From NCBI GenBank assembly GCA_041666145.1, contig JBAYHK010000005.1:8921-72920 (forward strand): DNA of 64,000 bases, read 5' to 3'. Each line of letters opens with the position of its first letter. Within the stretch, counting starts at the first letter, position 1. The stretch is from Patescibacteria group bacterium. GTDB lineage: Bacteria > Patescibacteriota > Patescibacteriia > UBA9934. Below the pieces are notes generated by a model. That model had not been told where the DNA came from, did no database searches, and saw only the letters and a list, made by a program, of their open reading frames with translations. The position numbers and the translations under genes are program-made. Below are positions 7,432 to 51,687 of the stretch, in pieces.

Positions 7432-7499
7432 AAACGTTTCTCGGCAAAAACACGAGAACAAAATTCAGAAAATTTTCACCACTTTATTCGAGGTTCATA

Positions 7500-8063
7500 A
7501 TGTTTGAAACACAAAGAAACTTAGAGTCCGACCTAGAAGACCTAGAAGACCTAGAAGACCTAGAAGACCTAGAAGACCTAGAACCGGATCCTATAAAAGA
7601 ACTGTACGCCGAACGGTTGCAGAAAGTTCGAGAGCTCCCGTTCTCCAACGTTCGAAAGCTCCTGTTCTCCGACGAGTTTACCCGCGATACTATCCCTAGA
7701 AAGATGCGGAATCTACCGCCACCACCCAGTAGAGAGATGGGGCTCATTGCGTGGACTGCGTATCGCGATGGACTCATCGAATTCGCGGAAGTACAGGGCT
7801 ATATCATCGGAAGACTCGTATCGCCTTCATGGAACACTCCCCTTGGTTTCGGGTTCGTAGCTGAAGGATATGTAGGAAAAAGAAAGATATCCTACATCGT
7901 TGGCAGACTGAAAAATAAGCTCGAACCGGAACCAGAATGTGGACAGCTCGTTCTTCTCACACGTGGATACGACAAATCTGAAGATCTACGAAAGACTAAC
8001 CAGCCCACCAGGCCTTACGAGCCAATCCCGAACTGGTTTGTAACCAAAGAGGAGGCTCGTTGA
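7500..8063 (+). CDS. Hypothetical protein with N-terminal (LED)n acidic repeat
   Basis: 187-aa ORF downstream of a consensus-like promoter. The N-terminus is encoded by a 9-nt microsatellite. No family recognised. Confidence 0.5.
   Translation: MFETQRNLESDLEDLEDLEDLEDLEDLEPDPIKELYAERLQKVRELPFSNVRKLLFSDEFTRDTIPRKMRNLPPPPSREMGLIAWTAYRDGLIEFAEVQGYIIGRLVSPSWNTPLGFGFVAEGYVGKRKISYIVGRLKNKLEPEPECGQLVLLTRGYDKSEDLRKTNQPTRPYEPIPNWFVTKEEAR
7532..7583 (+). repeat. Perfect 9-nt tandem repeat (cctagaaga) x5.8 encoding LEDLEDLEDLEDLEDLE
   Basis: Read directly: cctagaaga repeated head-to-tail, in-frame inside ORF 7500..8063. Confidence 0.85.
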
Positions 8064-8116: not shown

Positions 8117-8689
8117 TTAAAAGCCCATTGTAAGATTCACCGCTTCCTTTGCTTGAACTGGAGTGAAGTTCACCGGAATCAGTCGACGTTCACCAGATCG
8201 ATCGTCGTACAAAACGTAACCATTTTTTAACCCAAATTCGTACACTTCTTTTGTCACCTTCACGTCTTGTAAGCAATACTCACGAATCTCATCTATCTTC
8301 CCCTCCTTCCACCAAGCAACTGCCTGAAGACCGTGACTCGATTTCCTCGTTCCAACCGTTGCCGCGGCAACATCATCAAGCTTTATTCGGTATCCTAATG
8401 ACTTTTCAATGTGTTGCAAAATGTCGAGCTGCTGAAGCTTGAGCAAATCTCCGGCGTAATAATTGTTTAAAACAGGCATGTCAAAACCGATTGAATTGTA
8501 TCCAATAATTCGGCCACCAACTTCAAGTTTTGCAAACATCTGCGGCAAATCTTTTTCTAAATACGACTCGTAGGTATCTGTTTCGTAGTAATACACGCCA
8601 ACAAGAGAAACTTTCAGTTTATCTGTAAAATACCCACCAACTTCCTCAAAAGTATTCTGTGTTTCAATGTCTAAAACAATATCGTTCAT
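8117..8689 (-). CDS. DEDDh-type 3'-5' exonuclease (DnaQ-like fold)
   Basis: VLDIETQNT (Exo I), IGYNSIGFDMPVL (Exo II), HGLQAVAWW...EYCLQDV (Exo III, H-x4-D). Confidence 0.65.
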   Translation of the reverse strand: MNDIVLDIETQNTFEEVGGYFTDKLKVSLVGVYYYETDTYESYLEKDLPQMFAKLEVGGRIIGYNSIGFDMPVLNNYYAGDLLKLQQLDILQHIEKSLGYRIKLDDVAAATVGTRKSSHGLQAVAWWKEGKIDEIREYCLQDVKVTKEVYEFGLKNGYVLYDDRSGERRLIPVNFTPVQAKEAVNLTMGF

Positions 8690-8749: not shown

Positions 8750-9610
8750 CTACCATCCACATCGAACAGCGATACCTGTTGGAAGTTCAAAGGCACGCAC
8801 CGATTCTTCCTTTAACGTAAGCTCAACAGACTGAATCTCTGTTTTCCAAGAAATCGAGGTGCGAAGAAGATTTTCAATCGAGAGTGCCGGAAATCCGAGT
8901 GAATACGCGTTGACAAGAAGCAACCCCGAATTCTTATTTAACAACTTTGCGCAATCAGTAAGCAATTCAGGAAGATGATCCTCGAACTGCCAAAGCTCTC
9001 CCTCTGGACCGCGTCCAAATGCGGGAGGATCCATAAAAATTGCATCATACATATTGCCTCTACGGATCTCTCTTGCAACAAACTTTTGAGCGTCGTCAAC
9101 AATCCAACGTATCGGCCTTTCTGAAAGTCCCGACAAGTCTGCGTTCTCTTTTCCCCATGTCACAACAGGCTTGCTTGCATCAAGATGCGTAACATCCGCG
9201 CCAACACTTGCAGCAACAAGCGTTGCCGCACCGGTATATCCAAACATATTCAAAACTTTCATTCCAGGCTTTACATTCTCTCGAATCCAAACCCAGTTAT
9301 TCGCCTGCTCAGGAAACAATCCCGTGTGCTTAAATGATGTTGGACGGATACGAAACGTCAAATCTTCCCAATGAATATTCCAAGACTCTGGAACTTTTTT
9401 ATTGATAGTCCATTCACCTTCTCTACCCTGCCGTTTATACGAGAGATGAGAGTCATTCCAAGCCTCTTCATTTTCTTTTTTCCAAAGCGCCTGCGGCTCG
9501 GGACGAATCATAATAACGTCACCAAAACGTTCACGTTTTTCAAATGCCCCAGAATCAAGAAGTGCAAACTCTCGCCACTCTGCACAAGATCGAACAAGAG
9601 GCAATGACAT
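8750..9610 (-). CDS. Class I SAM-dependent (r)RNA methyltransferase, RlmI/YwbD-like without PUA domain
   Basis: LNMFGYTGAATLVAA (motif I), DAIFMDPPAFGRG (motif IV DPPxF). Confidence 0.6.
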   Translation of the reverse strand: MSLPLVRSCAEWREFALLDSGAFEKRERFGDVIMIRPEPQALWKKENEEAWNDSHLSYKRQGREGEWTINKKVPESWNIHWEDLTFRIRPTSFKHTGLFPEQANNWVWIRENVKPGMKVLNMFGYTGAATLVAASVGADVTHLDASKPVVTWGKENADLSGLSERPIRWIVDDAQKFVAREIRRGNMYDAIFMDPPAFGRGPEGELWQFEDHLPELLTDCAKLLNKNSGLLLVNAYSLGFPALSIENLLRTSISWKTEIQSVELTLKEESVRAFELPTGIAVRCGW

Positions 9611-9612: not shown

Positions 9613-10404
9613 TTACAAAGCAACAAAAATCAAAAGCATAAGCAATCCAAAGCCTATTCGATAATATGCAAATGGAAGAAAATCTTTTGTTTGAATGAAA
9701 TGGAGGAATGCACGAATAACAAAGAAAGCTGAAACAAATGCAGTAATAAAACCAACAATCAAAAGTTCAACTTCGCTTAAAGTAAGCGACACCCCATCTT
9801 TCATGAGCGTATAGATTGAAGCAGCGGCAAGTGTTGGTATTGCAAGCAAAAATGAAAACTCAGCAGCAACTGGACGTGTAACGCCAAGCATGAGTGCTCC
9901 AATTATCGTCGCAGCAGAACGCGATGTTCCGGGAATGAGTGCCAAACATTGAACTCCGCCTATAAAAAATGCCACCTTGTAAGACATCCGGTCGATACTC
10001 TTTATGTATTCCGTGTGACGACCCCACTCTATAAACATGAGAGCGATGCCTCCAACAATTAACGCAAGCGCTACGATAATAGGATTAAAAAGCGACTCTT
10101 TTATTACTGAACCAAAAAGTCCGCCAAGCACAATTGCTGGAATTACCGCAATCAGAATCTTTGTCCATGTTTTCAAAACAACACGATCTATCTTTTTATG
10201 AGTAACTGGCCAAATTTTCTTCCAATACACCACAACAACAGCAAGAATTGCACCAAACTGTATGACAACGTCAAACGTCTTTGTAAAATCTTCAGAAAAG
10301 GCAATCCACTGATTTGCAAGAATGAGATGCCCTGTCGACGATATTGGTAAAAATTCAGTAATGCCTTCAATCAGCCCAAGTGCAATTGCCTTGAGAAATT
10401 CCAT
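9613..10404 (-). CDS. uppP: Undecaprenyl-diphosphatase
   Basis: GITEFLPISSTGHLIL and PGTSRSAATI signatures. Polytopic membrane protein, 263 aa. Confidence 0.9.
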   Translation of the reverse strand: MEFLKAIALGLIEGITEFLPISSTGHLILANQWIAFSEDFTKTFDVVIQFGAILAVVVVYWKKIWPVTHKKIDRVVLKTWTKILIAVIPAIVLGGLFGSVIKESLFNPIIVALALIVGGIALMFIEWGRHTEYIKSIDRMSYKVAFFIGGVQCLALIPGTSRSAATIIGALMLGVTRPVAAEFSFLLAIPTLAAASIYTLMKDGVSLTLSEVELLIVGFITAFVSAFFVIRAFLHFIQTKDFLPFAYYRIGFGLLMLLIFVAL

Positions 10405-10406: not shown

Positions 10407-12365
10407 TTAATCATCAAAATGGATGTGCTCTCCTGGAGCAACTGGCATAGGCACGGCACTAACGGTCGTTGCCGCAACAACTGGATCCTTACGTTCCGCG
10501 GTAACATCGGGTGAATACACTTTCGGTCCTTTAAAGGCTTCCACTTGTTTTCTTTGCCGATACGGCTTCTTTTTTGTAAAAGATTCTGAACCAACAGATG
10601 CAACCACCGGTCGAGGAACGAAAACCTTCTGCTGAATTAATGAAGGTGTCTGTTGTTTGGATACTAAAGGAACAGTGGAGGCATTCTCTTCGTGTCGATG
10701 AGGCTCTGTAAAAACAGAACGGGACGGAAGATTGTTCAAAGAAACCTCCCCGGAAGTTGGAATGACAATCGCCTCTCCATCCTTTGGCGTTGGTGGAGGA
10801 TAGTATTTTTCACCTGGTCTCGGCGTTCGCACGGAAACATTTTTCTCCCCCTTCTTCTTCCGTTCTTCGACGATTAACGTATGACAATCATCACAATAAA
10901 TTGGACGAGTTCTATCTAGTTCTACTGGAAGAGAAAACTTCTTTCCGCAACGCGCACAGTCATACTCGTGTCCAAATCGAGCCCTTTTCGCTTCCTTCTT
11001 TTCTGCAGAAATTTTTGCAAACTCAGCTCCAACATCAAGATTCTGATCAAAACCGCTCCAAGTCATCACTCTTTCTTCAATCATTTTTCGATTTCCTCCG
11101 AATCGTTCACGAGATTGCTGAACAACCTTTTCCTCACTTCCTGTTCGCTGTGCTATCGGCGGAAGTGTTAATGCAGAAAATGGCTGGCTCGTAACACCAT
11201 CAATCATTAACTTTAAATAAATTCCATACTTTGGAAGGTTGATCAAATCTTCTGGCGTAAATCTTGGCATGAATTCACTTTCCATGAATTCAGCGTCTTT
11301 TGCACCAATACGAAATGTAATCAAGCTCCCCACATTTCCGAATACCGCGTCACGAACAGCAGTAGAAGTTAAACTATCGAGTTGCGCAATATACTGATGA
11401 GCAATAATGAGATTCAACCTATATTTCCGAGCCTCAGAAAGAATGTCCGCAAATGACTCTGTGGCAAAATTCTGAAATTCATCAACATACAGATAGAAAT
11501 CCTGTCGATCATTCTCGTTACGAATGTTCACACGCTCCATTGCAGACATGTAAATTTTCGTGATGATCATTCCGCCTAAAATGCGCATGGCATCTTCTCC
11601 AATCTGACCTTTGGAAAGATTAATGAGAAGAATTTTTTTATCGTCCATGATCTCACGGAAACTAAAAGCGGACTTTGATTGTGCAACAATATTGCGCATC
11701 ATTGTTGATGCCAAAAATTGTCCAACCTTGTTTTGAATTGGCGCAGAAGCCTCGGCAGCAAACTTTACATCATACATGGCAAATTCCTTAAGCCAGAAGG
11801 CCTGAACCATCGGATCTTTTACATTTTGAACAATCTCTGCCCTATATTCCTTGTCTGAAAGCATGCGATTGATTCCAAGCAATGTTGTTCCTGGAGTATC
11901 AAGAAGCGCGAGAATCGTATATTGCAAAATGTATTCCATGCGAGCGCTCCAAACGTTCTCCCATACCTTTTTAAAAATCGAAAGAAGACTGTACATCACC
12001 TTTGAGTTGTAATCATTCACAAGCTCCCATCCCTCTGTCTTCTCTAACATGTTAAACGCAATTGGAAAGTCACTATCTGCAGGATTGAAATACACAACAT
12101 CATTAATTCGCCAGGAGGGAATGTAATCAAGCATTTTACTTACAGTATCGCCATGTGGATCGATATAACAACATCCATGACCAGCATAGATGTCGGCTAA
12201 AATCATATTCTCAAGCAACGTAGTCTTCCCCATTCCAGTCTTTCCGACCATGTATATATGACGACGACGATCGTCTGTCTTAATACCAAATCTTCGCATG
12301 CCATTGCGAAAATTTGTTTGGCCAAAGTAGATAATATCCTTCTCGTGATCATGTTCGTATCTCAT
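10407..12365 (-). CDS. VirD4/TraG-like (FtsK-HerA superfamily) P-loop ATPase with a C-terminal zinc ribbon and Pro-rich tail
   Basis: GKTGMGKTT Walker A followed by CCYIDPHGD (DPxGD box of coupling proteins), LYVDEFQNF Walker B, IAHQYIAQL. C-terminal part has CARCGKKF...YCDDCH then a low-complexity Pro-rich tail. Confidence 0.6.
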   Translation of the reverse strand: MRYEHDHEKDIIYFGQTNFRNGMRRFGIKTDDRRRHIYMVGKTGMGKTTLLENMILADIYAGHGCCYIDPHGDTVSKMLDYIPSWRINDVVYFNPADSDFPIAFNMLEKTEGWELVNDYNSKVMYSLLSIFKKVWENVWSARMEYILQYTILALLDTPGTTLLGINRMLSDKEYRAEIVQNVKDPMVQAFWLKEFAMYDVKFAAEASAPIQNKVGQFLASTMMRNIVAQSKSAFSFREIMDDKKILLINLSKGQIGEDAMRILGGMIITKIYMSAMERVNIRNENDRQDFYLYVDEFQNFATESFADILSEARKYRLNLIIAHQYIAQLDSLTSTAVRDAVFGNVGSLITFRIGAKDAEFMESEFMPRFTPEDLINLPKYGIYLKLMIDGVTSQPFSALTLPPIAQRTGSEEKVVQQSRERFGGNRKMIEERVMTWSGFDQNLDVGAEFAKISAEKKEAKRARFGHEYDCARCGKKFSLPVELDRTRPIYCDDCHTLIVEERKKKGEKNVSVRTPRPGEKYYPPPTPKDGEAIVIPTSGEVSLNNLPSRSVFTEPHRHEENASTVPLVSKQQTPSLIQQKVFVPRPVVASVGSESFTKKKPYRQRKQVEAFKGPKVYSPDVTAERKDPVVAATTVSAVPMPVAPGEHIHFDD

Positions 12366-12371
12366 ACGATG

Positions 12372-13889
12372 CTATATTGGAAGATTCGGAGGAACATCGC
12401 TCTCTCGAATAGCAGCCGGCATTATCTGTTCTACATTCGCATGCTCCGTTGGAGATGTTGGAGTCGGCAAGAGTAGCTCAGATTCTGGAAGAGATCTGAC
12501 ACGCTCCTCTTCTTTTGTCTCTTCAATAGTTCGTTTCCAATTTGGGAGCTGAGGATCTTCTTTACTAGCAAAACTCAATGTATCCGGCGCCTCTGCACGA
12601 CGCGCCCCTACGTTACTCAATACTGGAGTTCTCGCATCAGCTGCCGGAAAATGAAACAACGTAGCCAACTCTTCAACATTCATATACAACCAGTCAGCCC
12701 CCTCTCCTCCACTTCTCCGCTTATAACGAGAAACTAATTTTCGTTGCTTACCCGCCATCTGCCATTCCTGCCAAATGTAATCATTTTTTGGTACAGAAGG
12801 TGCAAAAAGTCCCAAACGATTCATGTATTGATGATTGAATGTCGCAAACATACCCTTAGCAGAACTCGCCATAAGTCCCCGACTAAACTTCTTTTTTGGA
12901 CCTGAAGAAACCCAGCGGATTTTCGTCTTCCATGTTACCTTGGAAATTTTTTCTGCAACTGCATCCATTATGAGACGTTCATGCGAGGTCATTCGAAACA
13001 TACGAAAGTCATCTTTCTTTTCCTCATGAGCCGCTTCACCAAAACCAACCCCCGCTACCTGAGTCAGGATACCCTTAGGCAACCAAAGGACATTTTCAGC
13101 TAATGCACCAAATGCACTGGGTTTTTGCTTCTTCTCTTTACCCATCATGGCATTCAAATATTCAGCACCCTCTTTTACAAGCGTCTGACTATCTGGTGGC
13201 TGAATGATGATCTGAATCCAAAAATATTCTCTCTCCTTCATTTTCCCCAAAAACTCAATAATTGGTAGCAATGGATCTTTAAAACGAAAATCCTTCTCTC
13301 CTTGGTGCTCAAATTCTTTGTATGTTCGAATTGGAAAATAAGATTTTTCAGCGAATACCATTTCACTTCCAAAAACTTCAAACTCTTCATTTGGATATTC
13401 ATTCGGCAATACATCTACATAGTCATCTACTTCTATAATCTGTGCCTCGGGATATTGCGCATACAAAGCAGCCTCAACCAAATCACGATATTTATCAATA
13501 GTGCGAATTAAAAATCGAACATTCCCCTCACTTCCAACGATCTCAAGACTAAAAAAAGATTGAAATTTCCCGATCAGCCAGACTTCTCTCCAAGTAATCG
13601 CAGACTTCACACCGGAAATATTCATGAAAAAATTCTCCATGCCCTTCGGGGTATTGATCGCATCCTGAGGAACACGAATTTCTAATAACTGCCATCGCAA
13701 TGCAGCATTATATTTTCCTTGTTTATAATCCATCCAGATATGCGTCAAGCCCCAGATAATAACACCAAAAATTGGAATCCACCCGACCACGAGCAAGGCT
13801 TGAGCCGCAATAAGTGGCAGAGGAGTTGTATTTATGTAATGTAAAACTGTCGTTGGAAGCGAAATGGCAATACCAAGCATAGATAACAA
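12372..13889 (-). CDS. Membrane protein (2 N-terminal TM helices plus ~430-aa soluble domain), partner of the VirD4-like ATPase
   Basis: 505 aa. Hydrophobic helices at residues ~10-50, no recognisable catalytic motif. A 6-nt gap to the downstream ATPase gene implies one operon. Confidence 0.45.
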   Translation of the reverse strand: MLSMLGIAISLPTTVLHYINTTPLPLIAAQALLVVGWIPIFGVIIWGLTHIWMDYKQGKYNAALRWQLLEIRVPQDAINTPKGMENFFMNISGVKSAITWREVWLIGKFQSFFSLEIVGSEGNVRFLIRTIDKYRDLVEAALYAQYPEAQIIEVDDYVDVLPNEYPNEEFEVFGSEMVFAEKSYFPIRTYKEFEHQGEKDFRFKDPLLPIIEFLGKMKEREYFWIQIIIQPPDSQTLVKEGAEYLNAMMGKEKKQKPSAFGALAENVLWLPKGILTQVAGVGFGEAAHEEKKDDFRMFRMTSHERLIMDAVAEKISKVTWKTKIRWVSSGPKKKFSRGLMASSAKGMFATFNHQYMNRLGLFAPSVPKNDYIWQEWQMAGKQRKLVSRYKRRSGGEGADWLYMNVEELATLFHFPAADARTPVLSNVGARRAEAPDTLSFASKEDPQLPNWKRTIEETKEEERVRSLPESELLLPTPTSPTEHANVEQIMPAAIRESDVPPNLPI

Positions 13890-13927: not shown

Positions 13928-13966
13928 AAAAAAACTCAGACAGCATGTCTGAGTCTTTTTATTTTA
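13928..13966. terminator. Bidirectional intrinsic terminator after secDF
   Basis: A-run, then actcagac-agcat-gtctgagt (8-bp stem), then ctttttatttt. It sits between the secF stop and the next gene. Confidence 0.6.
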
Positions 13967-13980: not shown

Positions 13981-14880
13981 TTATGCACGATTCGCTCTCC
14001 ATCTTTCCCATTCAACCAAAAGCGGGCTCGCAATAAAAATCGATGAATACGCACCGGAAACTAAACCAATCATCAGTGCTAAAACGAAAGGTCTTGTAGT
14101 CTCACCACCAACCAAGAAAACAGCGAACAACGGAAGGAATGAAGAGAATGTTGTATTCAATGAACGAGCGAGCGTTTCCATTATGCTTGAATTCACAATG
14201 TCTCCAAATGACATGTCACTATGTCTACGACGAAGAAGATTTTCGCGAGTTCGATCAAGGACAACGATCGTGTCATTAATGGAGTATCCAAGAATCGTCA
14301 AAACCGCAGCCACGAAGGCCATGTCAACTTGATATCCAAAATAATGGCCCAAGACCGCAAAAACACCCAACGGAATCATCACATCGTGAAATGCGGCAAT
14401 CATAGTAACTACCCCATATTTCCATGAGGCAACTGGGTGTGTGACCTTACGAAACGCCCAAGCAACGTAAACAAGAATAAGAATGAGCATCAGTACCGAT
14501 GCAGATATGGATGCGCTTCGTAACTCATCACCAATCACAGGGCCAACCGTATCAAAGCGGATCTCTTTCGCGTCTACAGAAAGAGCTCTTACTATTGAAA
14601 GAATCATCTGGTGCTGTTCTTCAGTTACTGGCGCCAATCGAACAAAATATGTGTCGCCTTCGCCCTGCTGCACAACCGATTCAAAACCACCGGCTGTTGC
14701 CGCTTCACGGATCGCGCTCACCGATGTTCCAGGCGCTGAAATCTGCATCAAGCTACCACCGGTAAAATCAATACCAAAATTCAGACCGTACGCCAAAAGT
14801 GCACCAAATGCGAGAACAACAATAGCGACAGATATCGCGAGCCAAAGCTTAGACTTTCCAATAATGTTTATAGGTTTCAT
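13981..14880 (-). CDS. secF: Protein translocase subunit SecF
   Basis: N-terminal TM then GIDFTGGSLMQI SecF signature. Six-TM RND-like C-terminal half. Confidence 0.9.
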   Translation of the reverse strand: MKPINIIGKSKLWLAISVAIVVLAFGALLAYGLNFGIDFTGGSLMQISAPGTSVSAIREAATAGGFESVVQQGEGDTYFVRLAPVTEEQHQMILSIVRALSVDAKEIRFDTVGPVIGDELRSASISASVLMLILILVYVAWAFRKVTHPVASWKYGVVTMIAAFHDVMIPLGVFAVLGHYFGYQVDMAFVAAVLTILGYSINDTIVVLDRTRENLLRRRHSDMSFGDIVNSSIMETLARSLNTTFSSFLPLFAVFLVGGETTRPFVLALMIGLVSGAYSSIFIASPLLVEWERWRANRA

Positions 14881-14886: not shown

Positions 14887-16884
14887 CTAAAGACCAAGAA
14901 AGAAGAATTTTGAACGAACTTTTTGCATACGAGCAATCCTCCTTAAAATAAACCTGCAAACAACAAACGCGCAAAATAACGAAACAAACACACCCAATGC
15001 AAGCGTCAACGCAAACCCGCGAATTGATCCGGATGTAAGCTCAAAAAGGATGCCAGTCGCTATAAGAGTAGTTGTATTACCATCACGAATAGAAGGCCAT
15101 GCGCGACGGAAAGCTTCTTCAACTGCAGAAGGTAAATCACGACCAGATCGAAGCTCCTCTTTCATGCGCTCAAAAATAAGCACGTTTGCGTCAACCGCAA
15201 TACCAAGAGAAAAGATGAATCCAGCGATGCCAGATAACGTGATCGTCACACCGAATGTCTTAAAGAGCGCCAAGTTAAGAATTCCGTAAACCGCGAGTGA
15301 CACAATTGCCACCACGCCAGCAAGACGGTAGTACAACACCATGAAAAGAGCGACGAGCAAAAATCCAATCAAGCCAGCCTTAATGCTAAGGTCGAGCGAC
15401 TCTGCGCCAAGAGCTGGACCTATAGTCTGCTGACTCACGACGGCAATAGGTACAGGAAGCGCTCCAGCATTCAAACGTTGTGCTAATAACTTCGCTTCAG
15501 CAATCGTAAAGTTTCCGCTTATCGTAGCCTCTCCGCCATAAATCGGCTCATTAACAACTGGCGTTGTTATAGCCTCACCATCTAAAAAGATTCCAATGAT
15601 CTTCCCTACATTATTTTTTGTAAGCTCTGAGAAAAGCGCAGTTCCGTTCTCATTAAACTGCAAAATAACTAGTGGCGCCCCACTATTAGGATCAAATGCA
15701 ACTGACGCATGTTTTAAATCCTTTCCAGAAAGCTCCGTATTCTTCCAAGGATCAACGGTGAGAACATCAGAGGCCGTCGTCCAAGGCATCTCGATATGTG
15801 CAATCTCGTAACTTCTCGAAGGTCTTGACCCTACCCTATATAAAATATGGTACCCAAACTCTGTTTCAATAACATCTGAAATATTTGTATCACGAAGATT
15901 GTATGCAGCGTCTTCAAATGCTTGAACCATCTGACCTCGAGCAACATAGTCGAGATCTCCCCCATTTTTTCCAGATCCTGGATCATCTGAGTTCGCCTTT
16001 GCTAAGTCTGCAAAGTTTTGCGTTGTTGCTTCTGATTTTAATTGCTGCGCGAATGTAAGTGCCTCTTCTTTTGTTCGTGTTTGTGCACAACCAGTGGCTC
16101 CGCTATAACAAATCAAGATGTGAGAAATACGTGGTTCAGATTCCGTCTTCCTACTTATGTACTTAACAACATGCATTCGACTCGTACCTTCATAAAGCCC
16201 GTTAATAACACCAACTTTTAAACGTTTCGATTCAATCTGCTCAACAAGACCGTCATATTCTTTATCATCCGCAGTAACAAAACCAATATATCCACCGTTT
16301 GCTTTTGTCGATCCATCAATTGAGTTCTCCAAAGCAAGAGCGGCAAAGTCTTCGCCGGCAAGTGCCTTATCCATTATTGCAAGAGCATTCTTTCGCTCAT
16401 CAACCTGCGCCGCATCAATCTGCATCTGCTGCTCTTCTGTAGGTGTTGTATTTACATCTTCAATCGGAGTCCTGAATGCTAAAACTGGAGTCTCACCAAT
16501 CTGACTAATCGCACTCTGCACATCCGTCACGCCCGGAAGGTCCACAAGCACACGATAGTGACCATCTGAAACGTTTGTCTGCACAATAGGTTCTGCAACA
16601 CCAAAAGCATTCACGCGACGCTCAATAACATCACGAACGCCTTCAAGGGCAATATCTCGTTCCGCAGAATCAACCGACGTCATGTCAGCTTCGTAAACTA
16701 AATGCGCTCCACCCTTAAGATCTAGACCGAGCGTAAAGTCGCGCTCTGGAATATACGGCAAATGAAAGCCGACCTTCTCTTTCATGGTAACCATGACTGC
16801 ATTCCATTCCTTAGGGAAAGTCATGAGTCCTGCTGCAATGGCCAAAAGTACCAGCGCGGATGCGCCAATCACATTACGCTTCAT
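14887..16884 (-). CDS. secD: Protein translocase subunit SecD with two inserted parvulin-type PPIase domains
   Basis: GLDLKGGAHLVYE SecD P1 start and C-terminal RND-like TM bundle. Residues ~160-355 contain two parvulin-like segments, the second with ISHILI...GKNGGDLDYV...FGYHIL. Confidence 0.85.
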   Translation of the reverse strand: MKRNVIGASALVLLAIAAGLMTFPKEWNAVMVTMKEKVGFHLPYIPERDFTLGLDLKGGAHLVYEADMTSVDSAERDIALEGVRDVIERRVNAFGVAEPIVQTNVSDGHYRVLVDLPGVTDVQSAISQIGETPVLAFRTPIEDVNTTPTEEQQMQIDAAQVDERKNALAIMDKALAGEDFAALALENSIDGSTKANGGYIGFVTADDKEYDGLVEQIESKRLKVGVINGLYEGTSRMHVVKYISRKTESEPRISHILICYSGATGCAQTRTKEEALTFAQQLKSEATTQNFADLAKANSDDPGSGKNGGDLDYVARGQMVQAFEDAAYNLRDTNISDVIETEFGYHILYRVGSRPSRSYEIAHIEMPWTTASDVLTVDPWKNTELSGKDLKHASVAFDPNSGAPLVILQFNENGTALFSELTKNNVGKIIGIFLDGEAITTPVVNEPIYGGEATISGNFTIAEAKLLAQRLNAGALPVPIAVVSQQTIGPALGAESLDLSIKAGLIGFLLVALFMVLYYRLAGVVAIVSLAVYGILNLALFKTFGVTITLSGIAGFIFSLGIAVDANVLIFERMKEELRSGRDLPSAVEEAFRRAWPSIRDGNTTTLIATGILFELTSGSIRGFALTLALGVFVSLFCAFVVCRFILRRIARMQKVRSKFFFLGL

Positions 16885-16916: not shown

Positions 16917-18089
16917 TCACAAGGGATTTGCTGTGTATTCGCGTAATTCCTGCATCATTCGAAGGTAAAAACCAAGATTCTGTAAAGTAGCCAATCGTAA
17001 TCCAACGGTTTCTTGTGTCTTAAAAAGATGGCGAAGGTAGGCCCGAGAAAACTGTTTCGATGTAAAAACGTCACCGAAGGCATCTATAGAAGAAAGATCC
17101 TCAGTAAAACGCTCATTTGTTATTTGAATCTTTTCATAAAGCACTGCGGCTATCTCTTTGTCAGACCCACCGGAAACTGCAAGATCAAATGCAGAACGAA
17201 CTGCAATACGCGGATTCTGATTCCACACAAAAAGCGAACCATGTCTTGCGTTTCGCGTTGGAAGCACACAATCAAACATATCAATTCCAACGGAAACGTA
17301 ATACACAATCTCTTCTGGCATGCCTCCCCCCATGAAATATCGCGGTCGATCAGAAGGCATTATCGCCGCAAGCGCTTTTACAACACGAAATGTATCTTCA
17401 CGCTTTTCGCCAACAGAAAGACCGCCAATCGCATAACCGTCAAAATCAATCTCCTTCAAACCGTCTAACGATCGTCTTCGCAAATCCTCATGCGTACCGC
17501 CTTGTACAATCCCAAAAAGCAATGCCCTATCTTTCTTATCCTCAATCTGTTTAAAAAAATGCGCCTTCGAACGTACTGCCCAACGAAGTGACCGCTCCAT
17601 AGCATCTTCATATCGTTCACGAGTTGAGTCTCCGGCAGCTACGTCATCAAACTGCATTCGAATCGACGAACCGATCGCTTCTTGAATTTCCATTGATCGC
17701 TCTGGAGTTAGTCGAATTGTTGCGCCGTCAATATGCGACTGGAACGTAACACCGTCTTCATCTGTCGCATTCAAATTCGACAAACTGAAAACTTGATAGC
17801 CTCCACTATCGGTAAGCATAGGCCCCTCCCAATCCATCAACGATCGCATGCCTCCAAGATTACGCAAGACGTCTTCACCAGGACGCAACAGTAAATGGTA
17901 CGTATTTCCAAGAATAATCGACGCACCAAGCGTAGAGACTTCTTGAGGAAGCAACGTCTTTATCGCTCCAGCCGTTGCGATCGGCATAAAAACCGGCGTC
18001 TCAACAACGCCGTGAATAGTCGTCAATGTCGCACGCCTCGCCTGACCGCGCATGTTCCCTATCTTAAACGGAGATTCGATTTCGCTCAT
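16917..18089 (-). CDS. tgt: Queuine tRNA-ribosyltransferase (tRNA-guanine transglycosylase)
   Basis: RGQARRATLTTIHGVVETPVFMPIATAG N-terminus, catalytic Asp region and zinc CxCxxC...H site near the C-terminus. Start placed at MSEIES. Confidence 0.85.
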   Translation of the reverse strand: MSEIESPFKIGNMRGQARRATLTTIHGVVETPVFMPIATAGAIKTLLPQEVSTLGASIILGNTYHLLLRPGEDVLRNLGGMRSLMDWEGPMLTDSGGYQVFSLSNLNATDEDGVTFQSHIDGATIRLTPERSMEIQEAIGSSIRMQFDDVAAGDSTRERYEDAMERSLRWAVRSKAHFFKQIEDKKDRALLFGIVQGGTHEDLRRRSLDGLKEIDFDGYAIGGLSVGEKREDTFRVVKALAAIMPSDRPRYFMGGGMPEEIVYYVSVGIDMFDCVLPTRNARHGSLFVWNQNPRIAVRSAFDLAVSGGSDKEIAAVLYEKIQITNERFTEDLSSIDAFGDVFTSKQFSRAYLRHLFKTQETVGLRLATLQNLGFYLRMMQELREYTANPL

Positions 18090-18789
18090 ATAATCCAATA
18101 GAAACAGCAACGCCAACATTTAAAGACTCCAAAGCCGAATCAATGACAATTTTCACAGAAGTTCCCTCAATAGGAAGCACTATGCCCGCGCCCTCATTCC
18201 CAGCAATAATCATCGCAGGGCGTGTCCCGATCCTTGCAATATCAATCGCGCCTTCTGCAAGTTCCAATCGATAGACTACACGATTACATAAAGCGATGAG
18301 CTCTAAAGCGTCTTCGCGCGAAACCGTCATCCATGGCACACGAAGAATCGCACTTGCCGACGCACGTACGACTTTAGGACTTGTTACTTCTGCAGACTCA
18401 ATGAGAATCACGCTCGCACCAAAACCCAAACATGCACGAAGAATCGTTCCAACATTTCCAGGATCTTGAACCCCATCAAGAACAATAATCGTGTTTCTGG
18501 ACTGAACATCCTCAATCGTCCAATTCGGAATCTTTGCTACTGCTGCAAATGCCTGAGGAGTTTCTGTTGAAACAAATTCAGCAAAGCGCTTTGTGTCAGC
18601 AGAAGTAAAGGTCCATTCAACAAGACTCCCAGCATCACGAACAAACTTCTCGCCTTCGATAATAAATCTTCTAAGCTCTTTTCTACCTTTTTTTGTAGTT
18701 AATCGTGTTAGCAATTTTTCTTGAGTAGCTGTCAACATAGAAATTATTTCGCGGAGTCTTGAGCAAAAGCATCTTTCGCTACGTTCCAA
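18064..18789 (-). CDS. TrmH/SpoU-family RNA 2'-O-methyltransferase (RlmB-like)
   Basis: IILDGVQDPGNVGTILRACLGFGA and IPMEGTSVKI-like motifs of the SPOUT class. Confidence 0.8.
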   Translation of the reverse strand: MERSERCFCSRLREIISMLTATQEKLLTRLTTKKGRKELRRFIIEGEKFVRDAGSLVEWTFTSADTKRFAEFVSTETPQAFAAVAKIPNWTIEDVQSRNTIIVLDGVQDPGNVGTILRACLGFGASVILIESAEVTSPKVVRASASAILRVPWMTVSREDALELIALCNRVVYRLELAEGAIDIARIGTRPAMIIAGNEGAGIVLPIEGTSVKIVIDSALESLNVGVAVSIGLYERNRISV

Positions 18790-30250: not shown

Positions 30251-31651
30251 TTAATCCAAAAAAGCCAAAGCCGCTTCCTCATCCTTTTCAACGAAGATTT
30301 CAACGGCTCGCTTTGCTTTTTCAAGTAGGACTTTTGCTTGTTTACGTAGTTGCAAAGCTTCTAACACCTTGTTTGCAAGTTCTTCTTGTTTTGCATCTGC
30401 GAGCATTGGTATTTTGACCTGCATAGCACTTTCTGGCTTCAAGTGAGCGATAATCGCGCCTCCTGACATTCGCTCAATCTGAGTTTTGCAGTAGAAAGAG
30501 TTGAGGACCAATGCAAGGTAGTTGTTGTTTATCTTTACCTTCGGTTTAAGGCGCAGAAACGCACCACTCATAATTGCATCAACATCCTCATTGAGAGCAA
30601 ACGAAATGCCGATTGTGCCATCTTTTGTGAACAAAACTTCGCCCTTGTTTGGCTTATAGTTTTCCTTCAATCCTTCGTACAACTCTTCTGAAATTTTCTT
30701 CTCAACATCCTCTATGCCGTAGATAGTAAAATCAGAAACACGAATGAAATCTTTCCCTTCTTCTGCATACGCTTCGCTTCCAACTTCAACGCCTTTCTTT
30801 ACTGAAACGATGTCGCCAAGTTTCTCTTGTTGAACTTTTGATACTCTCTTAGTTATCTCATCGTATTTTGGTTGCCAATACTCGGCATCAAAGCGACTGT
30901 CTGCTAACGCTTCGCTAAAGTTTCGGACCGAGATAGTTTCTTCAGTGCCTTTGTAGCCCTCAAGATTGATTTCTTTAAGAAGCATCTGTTCAGCTTCTCT
31001 GTACACGTTCTCGCTCGCTGTTTTCTTTTCGTACGCATCCAAGATAAGCTTCTGAACAGTATTCTCAATCTGTTTTTTGGGTTGTACAATCTTCAGTTCT
31101 TCAAGAATAGTTAGGTTTATGTGTCCCTGAACACCCCCACTTGCAAACCTCATCAACTGAAAACGCCCATACATTGAGTTTAAGAAAGCAGTTAGGTAAA
31201 ACGGGCTTACGTTTTCTTTTGAACGGATAATAATGATATCGGCAGAGTTTGTCTTTTCATCTTCAAGGTAAACTGAAGCGTTGCCAAAAGAACCACTGCG
31301 AGCAATCAAAATGTCGTTCTTAGACACTTGTGATTTTTTGAGCTTTTTATGAAAATCATCGTTTATCCTTTGACATTCTGCTACATCTACAAAAAACTCT
31401 TTCACATTTCGTGTTTGCAATAGTAAAACCCCTTTATCATCGTACTCAGATACCATTGAGCCAACAAAGCCCACATCTATTTTTTCTGAAAGCTCTCCTA
31501 GTAACTCAACATCTTTTCTTTCATTGATTAAGCTATCAAGAGCTACAAAATGAGGGTCGTAATACTCAGCATCAAGACGACCAACTAAATCACTGTAGTT
31601 TATTACCGAGATTGCGAGGTTGTTTTCTTTTGTAATCGTTTGCCAAGACAT
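30251..31651 (-). CDS. hsdS: Type I restriction-modification specificity subunit HsdS (two target-recognition domains)
   Basis: Duplicated TRD architecture with conserved spacer helices. It lies immediately downstream of hsdM with a 2-nt gap. Confidence 0.8.
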   Translation of the reverse strand: MSWQTITKENNLAISVINYSDLVGRLDAEYYDPHFVALDSLINERKDVELLGELSEKIDVGFVGSMVSEYDDKGVLLLQTRNVKEFFVDVAECQRINDDFHKKLKKSQVSKNDILIARSGSFGNASVYLEDEKTNSADIIIIRSKENVSPFYLTAFLNSMYGRFQLMRFASGGVQGHINLTILEELKIVQPKKQIENTVQKLILDAYEKKTASENVYREAEQMLLKEINLEGYKGTEETISVRNFSEALADSRFDAEYWQPKYDEITKRVSKVQQEKLGDIVSVKKGVEVGSEAYAEEGKDFIRVSDFTIYGIEDVEKKISEELYEGLKENYKPNKGEVLFTKDGTIGISFALNEDVDAIMSGAFLRLKPKVKINNNYLALVLNSFYCKTQIERMSGGAIIAHLKPESAMQVKIPMLADAKQEELANKVLEALQLRKQAKVLLEKAKRAVEIFVEKDEEAALAFLD

Positions 31652-31653
31652 AG

Positions 31654-33591
31654 TTATTTCAAGAAGCTAAGACCTTGCTCTTTACCCCAAGCAACAAAGG
31701 CTTGAGCGATTTCATCGAGGTCGCTTAGATACTCGGGATTGCCATTTTCATCCTTCACGGCTTGTCCTTCTTCGTCTTTCTCAAAAATATAATCACCACT
31801 ATTATCTTTGAATGATTGCTTTTGTGTGGCAAAGAAAATAGGATAATCTTTTACAGTCGAACTTCCACCAGCATCTACTTCATTTTCATTCCACTTCTGC
31901 AAGAAAATAACAGAGGTCTTTGTGCCTGTGTGTGGCTTAAACGAATTACCGTGTAGCCCTACAACCGCCAAGATACGAGCCTTTTGCATTATGTATTTAC
32001 GAACATATTCCTCACTTGTGTTATTAAAAATACCCTGCGGAAGTACGACAGCAAGCCTACCTCCTGCTTTTACAAAATCAAGGTTCTTCTCAATGAAAAG
32101 CAAATGTCTGTCTACTGATTTTTGCATTTTGCCTTTGGCGTTTTTACCGAGAACATATTGCGAGAGAAGGTGTTTTTCTTTTACCTCACCCGCAAAAGGG
32201 GGGTTAGCAAGCAAAACATCAAATTCTAACTCTTTTAAGGAATCTAGATTATCAAAATATTTCGTGTTGTCATCAAAGTATTTTACAAGATCGAGTTCTC
32301 TTAGTTCGCTTTTAAACTTTTCAGGCCACTCTTTGGTATCAAGTGAGGTGGTTTTGTAGATATGACTTTTGCCGTCGCCAGCAATAACCATAATTGCACG
32401 ACTTATCTTTGTTGATTTTTCGTCAAAATCTATACCGAACAAGTATCGCATCGCATACTCTTTCATTCCTGCTTTTGAAAGGTTATCGTTTCTAGCAACA
32501 TACTGCATTGCATGTACCAAGAACCCAGCACTACCGCACGCTGTATCTATGACATATTCTTTTTTCTTTGGGTTCATCATTTGCACACACATATCAATCA
32601 CAATACGAGGCGTAAAGTATTGACCTTTCTTGCCTTTGGCTACATCAGGGAGCAGGTATTCAAAGGCCTCGTCGATGATGCGGAGATTGGAGCCGAACAA
32701 GCGTACGTCCTGTAATTCACCGACACAGATAGAGAGATGTTCAGGCGATAGCTTGATTCTGTCAGTCCTCTCAAAGATTTCAGGCCATTCTTTTTTTGCG
32801 TCCTCAAATAAATCGTCAATTACTTTTTTTGTATCCTCAGGCTTGCCATTAGGACTCTTTCTGAAATAGAGCTCTTCGCCATTGCGAGAAATGGCCTCCT
32901 TTTCGTCGTAGAGCTTTGAATAGATGAGTTTAAATATCTCATCAAAGCTATCAAAACCGGATTGAGCAAGTACCAATTCTTCAAGTGTTGTAATAATTAT
33001 CTTAAGATCTTGTTCATGCAGATCTTTAAGAACCTTTCGTTTTTGAAGAACATCGGAAACATCTTCTCCGTATGCGGGTATTTGATCTAAAGTATCAAAA
33101 TCCTTTGGATACGGACGGAACAATATCAACTGATACTTGCCATTAAGCGCAACACCAATCGGCGAACCCTCTGCATTCAAATATGACTTTAACTGCTGAA
33201 TATCATTCTCGACATTTGGCGCTTTGACTTCGATAATCATCTTTATCGTTTGCCAAGTTTCGTTTGTATACACGACAATATCAGCTCGTTTATTGTCATT
33301 TTTCTCACGACCAAACTGCACGATCTTTTCAAGTTCGATGTGTGCCTTTGGATACTTGTACTTCTTTGTAAGTTCTAAAAGGTAAAGCTGACGAACAATT
33401 TCCTCGGGCGCAGATTTACCCGTCTTTTCATTGTAGACAAGTTTTTCTTCCTCTAATCTCGAAATAGATTTTACGTAATACTTACCCTCCTCCTTTTGAT
33501 ATATTTCAATCTTGGCCAAATCATCGAACATTAGAAGATCCTGTTCGGGATTTTTAAAGATTTTACTTAAAATCTGCTGAGTTATGGTCAT
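31654..33591 (-). CDS. hsdM: Type I restriction-modification N6-adenine DNA methyltransferase HsdM
   Basis: VIDTACGSAGFLV (motif I), VLLANPPFAG (NPPF motif IV), N-terminal HsdM_N-like region. Confidence 0.9.
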   Translation of the reverse strand: MTITQQILSKIFKNPEQDLLMFDDLAKIEIYQKEEGKYYVKSISRLEEEKLVYNEKTGKSAPEEIVRQLYLLELTKKYKYPKAHIELEKIVQFGREKNDNKRADIVVYTNETWQTIKMIIEVKAPNVENDIQQLKSYLNAEGSPIGVALNGKYQLILFRPYPKDFDTLDQIPAYGEDVSDVLQKRKVLKDLHEQDLKIIITTLEELVLAQSGFDSFDEIFKLIYSKLYDEKEAISRNGEELYFRKSPNGKPEDTKKVIDDLFEDAKKEWPEIFERTDRIKLSPEHLSICVGELQDVRLFGSNLRIIDEAFEYLLPDVAKGKKGQYFTPRIVIDMCVQMMNPKKKEYVIDTACGSAGFLVHAMQYVARNDNLSKAGMKEYAMRYLFGIDFDEKSTKISRAIMVIAGDGKSHIYKTTSLDTKEWPEKFKSELRELDLVKYFDDNTKYFDNLDSLKELEFDVLLANPPFAGEVKEKHLLSQYVLGKNAKGKMQKSVDRHLLFIEKNLDFVKAGGRLAVVLPQGIFNNTSEEYVRKYIMQKARILAVVGLHGNSFKPHTGTKTSVIFLQKWNENEVDAGGSSTVKDYPIFFATQKQSFKDNSGDYIFEKDEEGQAVKDENGNPEYLSDLDEIAQAFVAWGKEQGLSFLK

Positions 33592-49329: not shown

Positions 49330-50970
49330 TTACTCTTGAGCCGTGCCAAAGAAACTCAAGATCTTTTGCGCAGCAGAAGTGTAGGTCGCGCTGTCCATAA
49401 TGGAATGTTCTGTATTGTAATCCAAGAATGTATCAATGAATGATTGCGCCATTGATTCCCCGATGCCGTTATCACCAAAAATCAGGGAAGATAATCGCGT
49501 ATATTCAGCATCGTATTGTGCTTTAAATTTTTCATTCGCAAACAATCGTTCCTTTAACGTATTTGTCTTACCGCTCATCCCTCCCCCACGATTCTCTTTT
49601 ACAACACCGGCATTTGCATCTGCACCATTGAAACCACCTTCGTTCATCCATTCATTTACCACGTTTCCAAGATCGTCTTGAGTATTCGTCTGCATACGGT
49701 TGCCTCCACCTAATCCACCAAGCGCCAAATTCTGATCCCATGAAAGCATGGTGAATTGTTTTGTTTCTTTGTTGTAATACAGATAGTAATTGCTTCCCAT
49801 GCCACTAAATGAATCTTGATTTTGCAACAATGTATCAAGCGCCATCATGCGGATGAGTGAGTCAACATCAATCCATGAATCAAGGTCTTGAGCAAACACT
49901 TCATCTGAAGATTCATCAAGGAATTTTAAGAATTCAATGAGCGGAGCAAGATCATCATCACCAACATTGGTCACCTGCTCATACGAATTGGCATACAACG
50001 TTGGATCATCGCCAAGATAAGAGAATCCAACAAAGTTTCCTGCCTTATACAACACGCCATCAGAAGAACCGAAATACTTTTCAATGTAGGACTCATCGAG
50101 ATTCTCTGTAAGTACGTATAACGAGGGCTCATTATCTGCCATGGTGACAACGCCATACGACGATTCTGGCACAATCTGACCAGCAGCGTCATGAATCGCG
50201 AATGCCACTGGCTCGCTCAACAAGCTAACATCGCTACCAATACGAACAGCGAGTTCTGTCACACCTTCATACGATTGACCGTCAACAAACTCATCGAATT
50301 TTATGAGAAATGGTGGATTGCCGCCTGTTGATGACACCATTCCACCACCCGCTAGCTGACCAACATTTTCTTGACCACCCTGCGCTCCGCCTGGATGCAT
50401 AGACGCGAAAAGCGTCTGCAATGTTGATCGCTTTTCTTCGTCAGAAAGAGTATCCCAATCCTCTGGAAGCGTGATGAATGGAGGAAGTTGGAGATTCTCC
50501 AAATCGATCATGTCGATATTGAAGCCCATTCGTCCCTGTGGTCCTCCCTGCATAACATCAGCAGGGATATCTCCGATTGGTGCAGCACCCATGCCACCAC
50601 CCTGTTCAGATCCACTTCCGCCAAGAGTCTGACGTAACGTAAGATTACCTTTTAATCGCACACCAACATCATCAATCGTTACCCCATCAATGGTGACGCT
50701 AGTACGATAATAATCTTTCTCGCCAGTTTCTTGGTACGTCGTAACCATGGAATCATATTCTTCTGCAGTCAATCCGATGCTCACGTCATGAACCACAGAA
50801 GCATCAAAAAGCGCGACACTATTTTCATAGCCGCTTTTCTCAGCTTCGATAAAACCGCTTTCACCAAAGTGATACGCGATGATGCGAAGTGAACCACATA
50901 CAAGAGCAATGCCAATACTGGCAACGAGCGCAAGAATGATCCAATAATTTCTTTTCCAGACTAAAGACAT
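49330..50970 (-). CDS. CotH-family (atypical kinase-like) secreted protein
   Basis: N-terminal signal/TM. NYYLYYNKETKQFTMLSWDQNLALGG matches the CotH NYYLY...WDxD core. Confidence 0.6.
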   Translation of the reverse strand: MSLVWKRNYWIILALVASIGIALVCGSLRIIAYHFGESGFIEAEKSGYENSVALFDASVVHDVSIGLTAEEYDSMVTTYQETGEKDYYRTSVTIDGVTIDDVGVRLKGNLTLRQTLGGSGSEQGGGMGAAPIGDIPADVMQGGPQGRMGFNIDMIDLENLQLPPFITLPEDWDTLSDEEKRSTLQTLFASMHPGGAQGGQENVGQLAGGGMVSSTGGNPPFLIKFDEFVDGQSYEGVTELAVRIGSDVSLLSEPVAFAIHDAAGQIVPESSYGVVTMADNEPSLYVLTENLDESYIEKYFGSSDGVLYKAGNFVGFSYLGDDPTLYANSYEQVTNVGDDDLAPLIEFLKFLDESSDEVFAQDLDSWIDVDSLIRMMALDTLLQNQDSFSGMGSNYYLYYNKETKQFTMLSWDQNLALGGLGGGNRMQTNTQDDLGNVVNEWMNEGGFNGADANAGVVKENRGGGMSGKTNTLKERLFANEKFKAQYDAEYTRLSSLIFGDNGIGESMAQSFIDTFLDYNTEHSIMDSATYTSAAQKILSFFGTAQE

Positions 50971-50976
50971 AGCGTC

Positions 50977-51678: not shown

Positions 51679-51687
51679 AGAAAGAGA

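Follow-up and report, generated by a model that had tools for sequence, protein, structure and literature searches.

A soluble VirD4/TrwB-like ATPase and a DUF8128 membrane protein as predicted subunits of one motor in Patescibacteria

Here we describe two adjacent genes on the minus strand of a 64,000-nt stretch of contig JBAYHK010000005.1, from a Patescibacteria group bacterium (hereafter the window), which encode a soluble ATPase of the VirD4/TrwB-like type IV coupling protein (T4CP) family and a membrane protein of the DUF8128 family (PF26449). We consider it probable, although some way from certain, that these proteins are two subunits of a single membrane-anchored, hexameric-type NTPase motor of the VirB4/VirD4 lineage and that their genes form a vertically inherited core module. 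The nearest named relatives are from Candidatus Uhrbacteria, and an identical copy of the 652-aa ATPase is also deposited as Patescibacteria group bacterium.

The two genes and their products

The pair lies within a tight co-directional array of the order tgt-secD-secF-DUF8128-T4CP-uppP-methyltransferase-exonuclease, with lepA and recJ beyond (Table 1). A gap of 6 nt separates the DUF8128 gene from the ATPase gene, both of which share one frame, and the intergenic gaps downstream of the DUF8128 gene measure 6, 2, and 2 nt. A preliminary description of this DNA had placed the pair upstream of secDF; by the direction of transcription it is downstream of secD-secF, and what holds of that statement is that they belong to the same gene string, with secD-secF upstream on the same strand both here and in 30 of 46 distant loci. 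The same description gave a 505-aa gene 6 nt upstream of the ATPase gene: the open reading frame (ORF) and the gap are as it said, but ATG 13880 is likelier to be the start than TTG 13889, being the start in public gene calls, and an identical 502-aa protein is deposited. A TATACT box resembling a −10 element (a consensus match only) stands about 13 nt 5′ of ATG 13880, and together with the terminator-like hairpin after secF it suggests that the pair may have a transcript of its own, independent of secF.

The ATPase carries the Walker A, YIDPHGD, and YVDEFQNF motifs and matches three T4CP models of Pfam, namely PF10412 (TrwB_AAD_bind; 2.7e-13, 50 bits, cut-off 20.5), PF02534 (32.8 bits, cut-off 20.1), and PF12696 (30.2 bits, cut-off 22). 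It also matches the TrwB crystal-structure sequence at 1.8e-5, and in hhalign comparisons the family profile reached a probability of 94% with TrwB and 2.6% with VirB4/TrwK, the score of TrwB against the family hidden Markov model (HMM) being only 24 bits. Matches to PF01580 (FtsK_SpoIIIE; E 0.057, over the P-loop), to DUF87, and to the NCBIfam CedD model at the Walker A region are weak. GKTGMGKT and YVDEFQNF are invariant in 23 homologs. The core begins at about residue 30, and no membrane segment is present in the protein, where the highest Kyte-Doolittle hydropathy over 19 residues is 1.06. The zinc ribbon is kept in 34 of 40 complete distant homologs; its matches to PF23477 and TIGR04272 are both below cut-off. 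Behind the ribbon, the tail (aa 500-652) is 13% proline and 16% lysine plus arginine. Most close homologs in the 23-homolog alignment have its KKRRRR patch and C-terminal PGERIxF, and 22 of the 40 distant homologs end in G[EQ]x[IV]x[FL]. This C-terminal peptide is acidic/aromatic and TraD-like (compare TraD-TraM). The preliminary description of a 652-aa coupling ATPase with no transmembrane anchor, a Cys4 zinc ribbon, and a Pro-rich tail is accordingly upheld.

The membrane protein was assigned to DUF8128 by precomputed annotation and public gene calls, as were all but one of its listed homologs; PF26449 is newer than the Pfam release used for our general scan, which explains why the protein drew no Pfam match there. 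At E≤1e-3, the family comprises 1488 homologs among 8000 candidates scored and, in an exhaustive search, 2,476 clusters at 50% identity, and wherever the source names an organism it belongs to the Patescibacteria (Uhrbacteria, Falkowbacteria, Komeilibacteria, Parcubacteria). Two N-terminal transmembrane helices had been described for the protein, but we find one strongly hydrophobic stretch, at aa 24-50 (hydropathy windows >1.9 at aa 24-33), preceded by a weakly hydrophobic helix, and two membrane helices are not clear. The AlphaFold2 (AF2) model places helices at 24-35 and 37-63, so that the predicted anchor could be either one kinked span or a helical hairpin; W46, G47, and W52 are invariant. 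Positive charges follow the anchor, and the large domain behind it is therefore predicted to be cytoplasmic. Near-invariant motifs of this domain are PKGMENFF, YAQYPEAQI, FEHQGEKD, and EELATLFHFP. The protein also has two copies of an EPPxxLP-type motif. In the first, R430, E433, P435, and L438 are invariant, and its family form, of the (K/R)xEPPxxLP type, recurs in most of 44 diverse members; in the second, P500, L503, and P504 are invariant in 30 homologs, and the family form, PPNLP[VIFLM], is retained in distant members despite linkers of up to ~250 aa.

Table 1. Positions of the gene pair, its protein features, and its neighbours in the window; AF2 confidence is given as the predicted local distance difference test (pLDDT)
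Feature	Position	Strand	Remarks
tgt	16917-18119	-	
secD with parvulin-type peptidyl-prolyl isomerase insert	14887-16884	-	Pfam annotation
secF	13981-14880	-	Pfam annotation
Terminator-like hairpin, T-runs on flanks	13934-13954		secF/DUF8128 gap; consensus match only
DUF8128 (PF26449) membrane-subunit gene	12372-13889	-	502 aa with the likelier start, ATG 13880; 505 aa with TTG 13889
Hydrophobic membrane anchor	13740-13820	-	aa 24-50 (~27 residues); central GWIP kink conserved
Globular alpha/beta domain	12657-13694	-	aa 66-411; AF2 pLDDT mostly 75-92
First EPPxxLP-type motif, RRAEAPDTLSF	12570-12602	-	aa 430-440; directly C-terminal to globular domain
Second EPPxxLP-type copy, PPNLPI	12375-12392	-	aa 500-505; extreme C-terminus, past variable disordered linker
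Soluble T4CP-type (VirD4/TrwB-like) ATPase gene	10407-12365	-	652 aa; Pfam, NCBIfam, and PDB matches
Walker A, GKTGMGKT	12222-12245	-	aa 41-48; columns G41-K47 invariant
Walker B, YLYVDEF	11475-11495	-	aa 291-297, D295/E296; invariant columns
Zinc ribbon, CxxC-x17-CxxC	10884-10958	-	C470/C473/C491/C494; cysteines invariant in 23 homologs
Disordered Pro- and Lys/Arg-rich tail	10410-10868	-	C-terminal peptide PVAPGEHIHFDD (consensus PGERIxFD/E)
uppP/bacA	9613-10404	-	begins 2 nt past T4CP stop
S-adenosylmethionine-dependent methyltransferase	8750-9610	-	rRNA-type
RNase-H-fold exonuclease	8117-8689	-	

Conserved pairing and the fold of the membrane partner

A diverse DUF8128 profile retrieved 80 metagenome loci whose DUF8128 proteins are 27-49% identical to that of the window. 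Adjacency was counted in the 51 loci with at least 1.5 kb of downstream sequence, a T4CP gene being scored when it lay on the same strand within 700 nt. In 41 of them the T4CP gene stands directly 3′ of the DUF8128 gene on the same strand, with 23 of the 41 gaps being ≤10 nt or overlapping, and both reverse look-ups from the ATPase also gave DUF8128 upstream, in agreement with annotated relatives. The ATPase core is 53 to 73% identical (median, 59%) where its partner is 27 to 39% identical (median, 33%). In at least one lineage the two proteins are joined: in P0522 (L039:16090-18654), an 854-aa protein called as a gene in two data sources, a membrane helix is followed by DUF8128 at aa 92-411 (E 4e-44) and by the T4CP core at aa 411-834 (458 bits). 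P0522 is a classical Rosetta-stone fusion with VirB4-type architecture. The EPPxxLP motif is found in cis, directly N-terminal to the ATPase core, both in P0522 and in two short T4CP-only paralogs, which suggests that the split occurred just after this motif and makes the peptide a candidate docking element in trans. Taken together, these observations give good support to a single machine in which DUF8128 would serve as membrane and scaffold subunit and the T4CP as motor; the pairing of the two genes, which had been put forward from the window alone, extends to distant loci and to the fusion.

The two short paralogs (L026:13593-15011 and L052:19864-21255, both on the plus strand) are proteins of 463 to 472 aa that score ~430 to 440 bits against the family HMM. 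The zinc ribbon is absent from them, and one is encoded directly 3′ of the main T4CP gene; such paralogs may explain in part why the literature reports a second T4CP copy per genome. In the window, neither the DUF8128 nor the T4CP family has a second copy. The closest non-CPR (candidate phyla radiation) relative of the ATPase that we found is a 395-aa T4CP-like protein, 38% identical to the CPR protein, encoded on a Sulfitobacter mediterraneus plasmid (NZ_CP081110.1, 99994-101181; L009) with a recombinase and transposases on its flanks and without a membrane partner; it may be related to mad8-type ATPases.

The surroundings of the pair are chromosomal. The ~45 window ORFs that were scanned or annotated are housekeeping or otherwise ordinary chromosomal genes (DnaB, UvrD, UvrC, TIM, iPGM, LepA, RecJ, PilM, and MraW among them), accompanied by a two-component system and a restriction-modification island. 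As the preliminary description had it for type IV secretion system (T4SS) components, none of these ORFs encodes VirB4, VirB6, VirB8, or any other T4SS gene product, nor a relaxase or an integrase. No T4SS gene was found within 10 kb in ~90 related loci, and no DUF8128 relative occurs on the 2.9 million viral contigs of IMG/VR, on which ground an origin from a phage or mobile element was rejected. The sequence comparisons support the pair as a vertically inherited core module, adjacent across deep divergence, rather than the cargo of a conjugative element. The earlier suggestion of a split or rewired coupling-ATPase module, not conjugation machinery, likewise agrees with the conserved adjacency, the fusion, the secDF synteny, and the housekeeping context.

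Unbiased clustering of neighbour genes showed which of them recur. secD and secF are conserved upstream neighbours, which we treat as context that does not imply membership in the machine; MurB recurs in 14 loci, MnmA in 13, and SecA, within 10 kb, in 12. UppP is restricted to a lineage, adjoining the pair in only 3 of 36 distant loci and being confined to closer relatives. A protein of ~375 aa with an N-terminal Sigma70_r4 and a C-terminal HARE-HTH domain is present in 38 loci (e.g., L073:962-2089, plus strand), and its gene lies directly upstream of the DUF8128 gene in 37 of the 80 metagenome loci; it was not found in the window or in close relatives. ComEC, which is absent from the 64-kb window, directly adjoins DUF8128 in two lineages that share only 36% identity between their DUF8128 proteins, upstream in one (L030, 709-2232) and downstream in the other (L062, 2997-7913), where no T4CP is adjacent to DUF8128. 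In L062, the DUF4131/Competence and metallo-beta-lactamase parts of ComEC are encoded by separate genes, and genes for PilM, a response regulator, and a type IV pilin come next. By a rough estimate that assumes ~900 genes per genome and independent lineages, ~0.2 ComEC adjacencies would be expected by chance.

The AF2 model of DUF8128 (pLDDT 72; predicted TM-score [pTM] 0.64) was compared with the PDB using Foldseek, a check that the preliminary description had proposed. The only convincing structural match was VirB4: the ten best matches were all TrwK/VirB4 chains of the R388 T4SS, at E values of 1.4e-5 to 3.8e-3 and probabilities of 1.00 for nine and 0.94 for the tenth, and the next, unrelated match had an E value of 0.03. 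We regard this agreement of modelled and solved folds as good rather than conclusive, and the globular domain of DUF8128 most likely corresponds, by its size, to the N-terminal domain of VirB4. In R388 that domain, which covers residues 15 to 400, holds VirB4 dimers together and has the bitopic VirB3 wrapped around it (PMC9259494); in size and position, the DUF8128 domain is compatible with such a role. Towards the close of their N-terminal parts, TrwK and DUF8128 also share a (L/E)xxxx(W/F)xx(L/F)P motif, the TrwK stretch LALEAGYWAQLP loosely resembling EELATLFHFP; as a sign of relationship, this short resemblance is suggestive only.

Known systems share parts of this arrangement. With VirD4/TrwB/TraD-type T4CPs, the window ATPase has in common a P-loop domain with a helical insertion, Walker A and B, an AHQ motif, and Pfam matches, but it differs from them in having no N-terminal membrane domain and in its C-terminal zinc ribbon and basic tail, and the pair in its chromosomal housekeeping context, with no relaxase or T4SS gene in the window. 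Two-partner T4CPs without a membrane domain are known, TraJ with TraI in pIP501 and TraG with TraJ in IncH R27 (PMC7434980), and these likewise combine a soluble or poorly anchored ATPase with an adjacently encoded membrane protein; adjacency in 41 of 51 loci and the Rosetta-stone fusion place the window pair beside them, its interaction being a prediction. Their partners, however, are small (~200 residues and up to five membrane helices for the IncH TraJ-like proteins; PMC7434980) and encoded in plasmid transfer operons, whereas DUF8128 has ~500 aa, a VirB4-like cytoplasmic domain, and a chromosomal gene. VirB4 (TrwK) with VirB3 offers the same succession of membrane helix(es), an alpha/beta N-domain of ~350 to 400 aa, and an FtsK/HerA-type ATPase, which P0522 presents as one chain with its own membrane helix. 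The window genes, in contrast, do not have the single-chain layout with VirB3: their polypeptide is split, the motor is T4CP-like by sequence, and they do not stand beside VirB3/6/8 genes. In the archaeal Ced DNA importer, pieces of the VirB4 N-domain are spread over two ATPases (bioRxiv 10.1101/2024.09.27.615246). The crenarchaeal CedB/CedD system is similar to the window pair in this distribution of N-domain-like modules over two proteins and in its chromosomal genes, and it moves DNA without a relaxase; yet CedB and CedD are each a full HerA-clade ATPase with part of the N-domain, whereas DUF8128 would be the whole N-domain with no ATPase. FtsK/SpoIIIE differs in its alpha/beta/gamma domains and four-helix membrane region, which the window ATPase does not have.

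Stand-alone T4CPs of Patescibacteria were reported in 2025 by Quinonero-Coronel et al., who found 5,713 VirD4-type T4CPs in 2,918 of 3,035 genomes (96%), only 148 of them near virB4, with only 109 relaxases and with VirB4 in 2,417 genomes (80%), and for whom the role of these T4CPs was an open question (PMC12102498). In Southlakia epibionticum, whose T4SS was described by Wang et al. in 2023 as having no recognisable coupling or relaxase proteins (PMC10633639), the supplement of that study lists SEML1_0293, a 921-aa T4CP with a P-loop domain from about residue 361 and PF10412 from residue 402 that is non-essential in transposon sequencing (Tn-seq). Directly upstream of it is the essential SEML1_0294 (Sigma70_r4 plus HARE-HTH, annotated "RpoS"), an order that matches the sigma4/HARE-HTH-then-T4CP order of distant metagenome loci. 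Given this gene order and the ~360 to 400 extra N-terminal residues, SEML1_0293, long and apparently fused where the window ATPase is not, is probably the fused Saccharibacteria form of the DUF8128/T4CP module, as judged by length and synteny. Unlike SEML1_0293, a second long T4CP/FtsK-like protein of this species, with 1019 aa and its ATPase at aa 381-800, is essential in Tn-seq, as is the small gene preceding it (SEML1_0141-0142). The orphan Patescibacteria T4CPs of these two studies, near-universal and far from virB4, and SEML1_0293 with them, probably belong to the same family as the window ATPase, but neither study has the DUF8128 partner, the split and fused forms, the VirB4-like fold, the twin motif, the zinc ribbon, or the secDF synteny. 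DUF8128 is mentioned in no searchable paper. The orphan ATPase had been reported before, but there is apparently no earlier description of its membrane partner, of the fusion, of the twin motif, or of the pattern of neighbours; what is added here is a chromosomal, phylum-wide T4CP, split from or elsewhere fused to a partner resembling the VirB4 N-domain.

A proposed motor and its alternatives

The fold match of DUF8128 to VirB4 makes the pair look like a VirB4-style layout built with a T4CP-type motor. In the machine that we propose, the DUF8128 domain and the N-terminal domain of VirB4 would be homologous and the DUF8128 anchor would take the part of VirB3, so that the pair would reproduce the VirB3-VirB4 layout. 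DUF8128 would recruit a predicted T4CP ring to the membrane and organise it there on the cytoplasmic side, where the duplicated EPPxxLP peptides may help to hold it, and the ATP-driven ring would thread or hand over a polymer. The zinc ribbon, basic tail, and C-terminal peptide would capture the substrate, most likely DNA or nucleoprotein, for delivery to a membrane conduit whose genes lie elsewhere: the ComEC competence channel or the chromosomal T4SS of Patescibacteria. The motor could dock on this T4SS through N-domain to N-domain contacts like those that pair VirB4 subunits. We lean by analogy towards DNA or nucleoprotein because (i) the zinc ribbon, polybasic patch, and terminal peptide resemble nucleic-acid- or adaptor-binding elements; (ii) the DNA-binding sigma4/HARE-HTH protein is the commonest immediate neighbour; (iii) ComEC adjoins DUF8128 in two divergent lineages; and (iv) SEML1_0293 is dispensable like the competence genes, with comEC, comF, and dprA non-essential in S. 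epibionticum, whereas the T4SS genes are essential (PMC10633639 supplement). The DNA handling typical of T4CP family biology favours the same substrate (PMC7434980).

Several observations weigh against this interpretation. A T4CP gene is not adjacent to DUF8128 in 10 of the 51 loci. The link to VirB4 comes from one fold search with a medium-confidence model (pLDDT 72); all ten matches are chains of a single protein, with TM-scores of 0.29 to 0.34 and root mean square deviations of 8 to 12 Å, low TM-scores being expected because the match is multi-domain, and the Foldseek output gives no VirB4 residue range, so that the N-domain was assigned by size. No sequence link between DUF8128 and VirB4 appeared when two profiles were run with hmmsearch against PDB sequences or when hhalign was run against TrwK of R388 (NC_028464.1). 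A Pfam scan of 44 DUF8128 members at E≤10 returned nothing, including no CagE_TrbE_VirB (PF03135), and neither window protein has a Pfam match to PF03135 or another VirB4-type signature; with hmmsearch, hhalign, and Pfam scan all empty, we discarded the idea that DUF8128 can be tied by sequence to a solved structure or to another Pfam family. The AF2 monomer model of the ATPase, from a 23-sequence alignment, is poor (pLDDT 50). The DUF8128-like N-terminal ~360 to 400 aa of SEML1_0293 are read from length and synteny. The DNA-handling function is likewise a prediction, and the strongest synteny is with Sec genes: the commonest neighbours are SecD/F (41 loci) and SecA (12 loci), not DNA-uptake genes, with ComEC adjacent in only 2 of 80 loci.

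The main competitor, which we hold to be less likely but to be taken seriously, is that the pair serves as coupling protein, encoded at a distance, for the chromosomal T4SS of Patescibacteria (VirB4, TrsD, VirB3, VirB6, and VirB2-like pilins), selecting protein effectors or DNA for the host cell, with DUF8128 as an adaptor like TraI/TraJ of pIP501. With VirB4 in 80% of Patescibacteria genomes and T4CP genes often far from virB4 (PMC12102498), the module may still serve this T4SS; two-partner T4CPs lacking a membrane domain have precedents (PMC7434980), and a partner like the VirB4 N-domain could dock on the T4SS inner-membrane complex. On the other hand, more genomes have a T4CP (2,918) than VirB4 (2,417) (PMC12102498), the ~90 related loci have no T4SS gene within 10 kb, and in S. 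epibionticum the T4SS, described without recognisable coupling or relaxase proteins, is essential while the syntenic SEML1_0293 is not. At the opposite end, DUF8128 and the T4CP might form a nucleic-acid translocase that is found across the Patescibacteria and acts on its own, with no T4SS. It could be the missing ATP motor for DNA passage through ComEC in a phylum that lacks an annotated ComFA (which is not listed among the S. epibionticum genes; PMC10633639 supplement), and it would be a previously unrecognised third VirB4/VirD4 branch; we rate this idea as unlikely, somewhat below coupling to the T4SS. If true, such a branch would unite a VirB4-type N-domain with a VirD4-type motor as an evolutionary intermediate between the T4SS ATPases.

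The prominence of Sec genes in the neighbourhood could alternatively mean that the pair is a Sec-linked helper of the envelope or of protein export, its zinc-ribbon tail being akin to the C-terminal zinc domain of SecA. In 30 of 46 loci secD-secF precede the pair on its own strand, SecA occurs within 10 kb in 12, and MurB, a Mur ligase, UppP, and glycosyltransferases recur nearby. However, tgt-secD-secF...recJ is an old conserved bacterial gene order, and the linkage to secDF may be an inherited position; the terminator-like hairpin parts secF from the pair in the window, the sigma4/HARE-HTH gene sits between secDF and the pair in many lineages, and we know of no T4CP-family member that works with Sec, so that we find a Sec helper improbable. 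More improbable again is a role in defence against phages or plasmids, as an ATPase module like mad8 of MADS or HerA. The best PADLOC match of the ATPase core is indeed mad8 of MADS (66.9 bits, 5e-19), HerA matches are weak, and the closest non-CPR relative is the stand-alone Sulfitobacter plasmid protein beside transposases, at 38% identity, yet the other seven genes of the mad1-mad8 operon are not present, DUF8128 has no PADLOC match, and the window neighbours are secDF, uppP, and a methyltransferase. The fixed place of the pair by housekeeping genes across deep lineages and its very high conservation, which is core-gene behaviour, are the opposite of defence islands; with one of eight components matching and the genomic behaviour contradicting it, MADS defence was rejected as the principal explanation. 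The least probable of all is the remnant of a decayed integrative conjugative element or an FtsK-like chromosome-segregation translocase, for which membership of the FtsK-HerA superfamily, the weak FtsK_SpoIIIE and DUF87 matches, and a G+C content (0.41 to 0.42 for both genes) slightly under the window mean might speak. Against a remnant, no integrase, relaxase, or repeat boundary was found, the catalytic motifs are intact and invariant, and the conserved synteny argues strongly; against an FtsK substitute, the genuine FtsK of S. epibionticum, SEML1_0096, is essential (PMC10633639 supplement), whereas the T4CP is dispensable. Invariant motifs, synteny, and the separate essential FtsK of Saccharibacteria effectively exclude both.

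Under the favoured reading, a two-subunit membrane motor of the VirB4/VirD4 lineage, an orphan ATPase would become the motor of a defined machine of two parts, inherited together with a membrane partner of its own that is fused to it in some lineages, with conserved docking-type peptides and DNA-related neighbours beside the pair. The resemblance of this partner to the VirB4 N-domain is also of interest for the divergence of VirB4 and VirD4. The host-dependent Patescibacteria account for much of bacterial diversity, and assays for gene replacement and transformation are available in Saccharibacteria, the group with the probable fused counterpart.

Other features of the window

The SecD protein encoded upstream of the pair has a parvulin-type peptidyl-prolyl isomerase (Rotamase) domain between SecD_1st and the P1 head, an architecture that recurs in every annotated related Patescibacteria locus. 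Further along the array, a lone plus-strand ORF of 187 aa amid minus-strand genes (7484-8063, a region with features on both strands) starts with an (LED)n/(SRS)n trinucleotide-type repeat, LEDLEDLEDLEDLED; it is called with 181 or 187 aa depending on the contig and has no family assignment. The restriction-modification island (30251-33591, minus strand) consists of an HsdS-like specificity subunit and a 645-aa HSDR_N/N6_Mtase/Eco57I-type fusion, and was probably acquired horizontally; its G+C content is lower (0.395 to 0.40), and its AT skew is opposite to that of the rest of the window. An 833-aa ORF (35613-38114, minus strand) gave no significant Pfam match, only a sub-threshold one to PatG_C. 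Finally, a cluster of CotH kinase-like, DUF4956, and VTC (polyphosphate polymerase-type) genes lies at 49330-52476 on the minus strand, beside a histidine kinase/response regulator pair.

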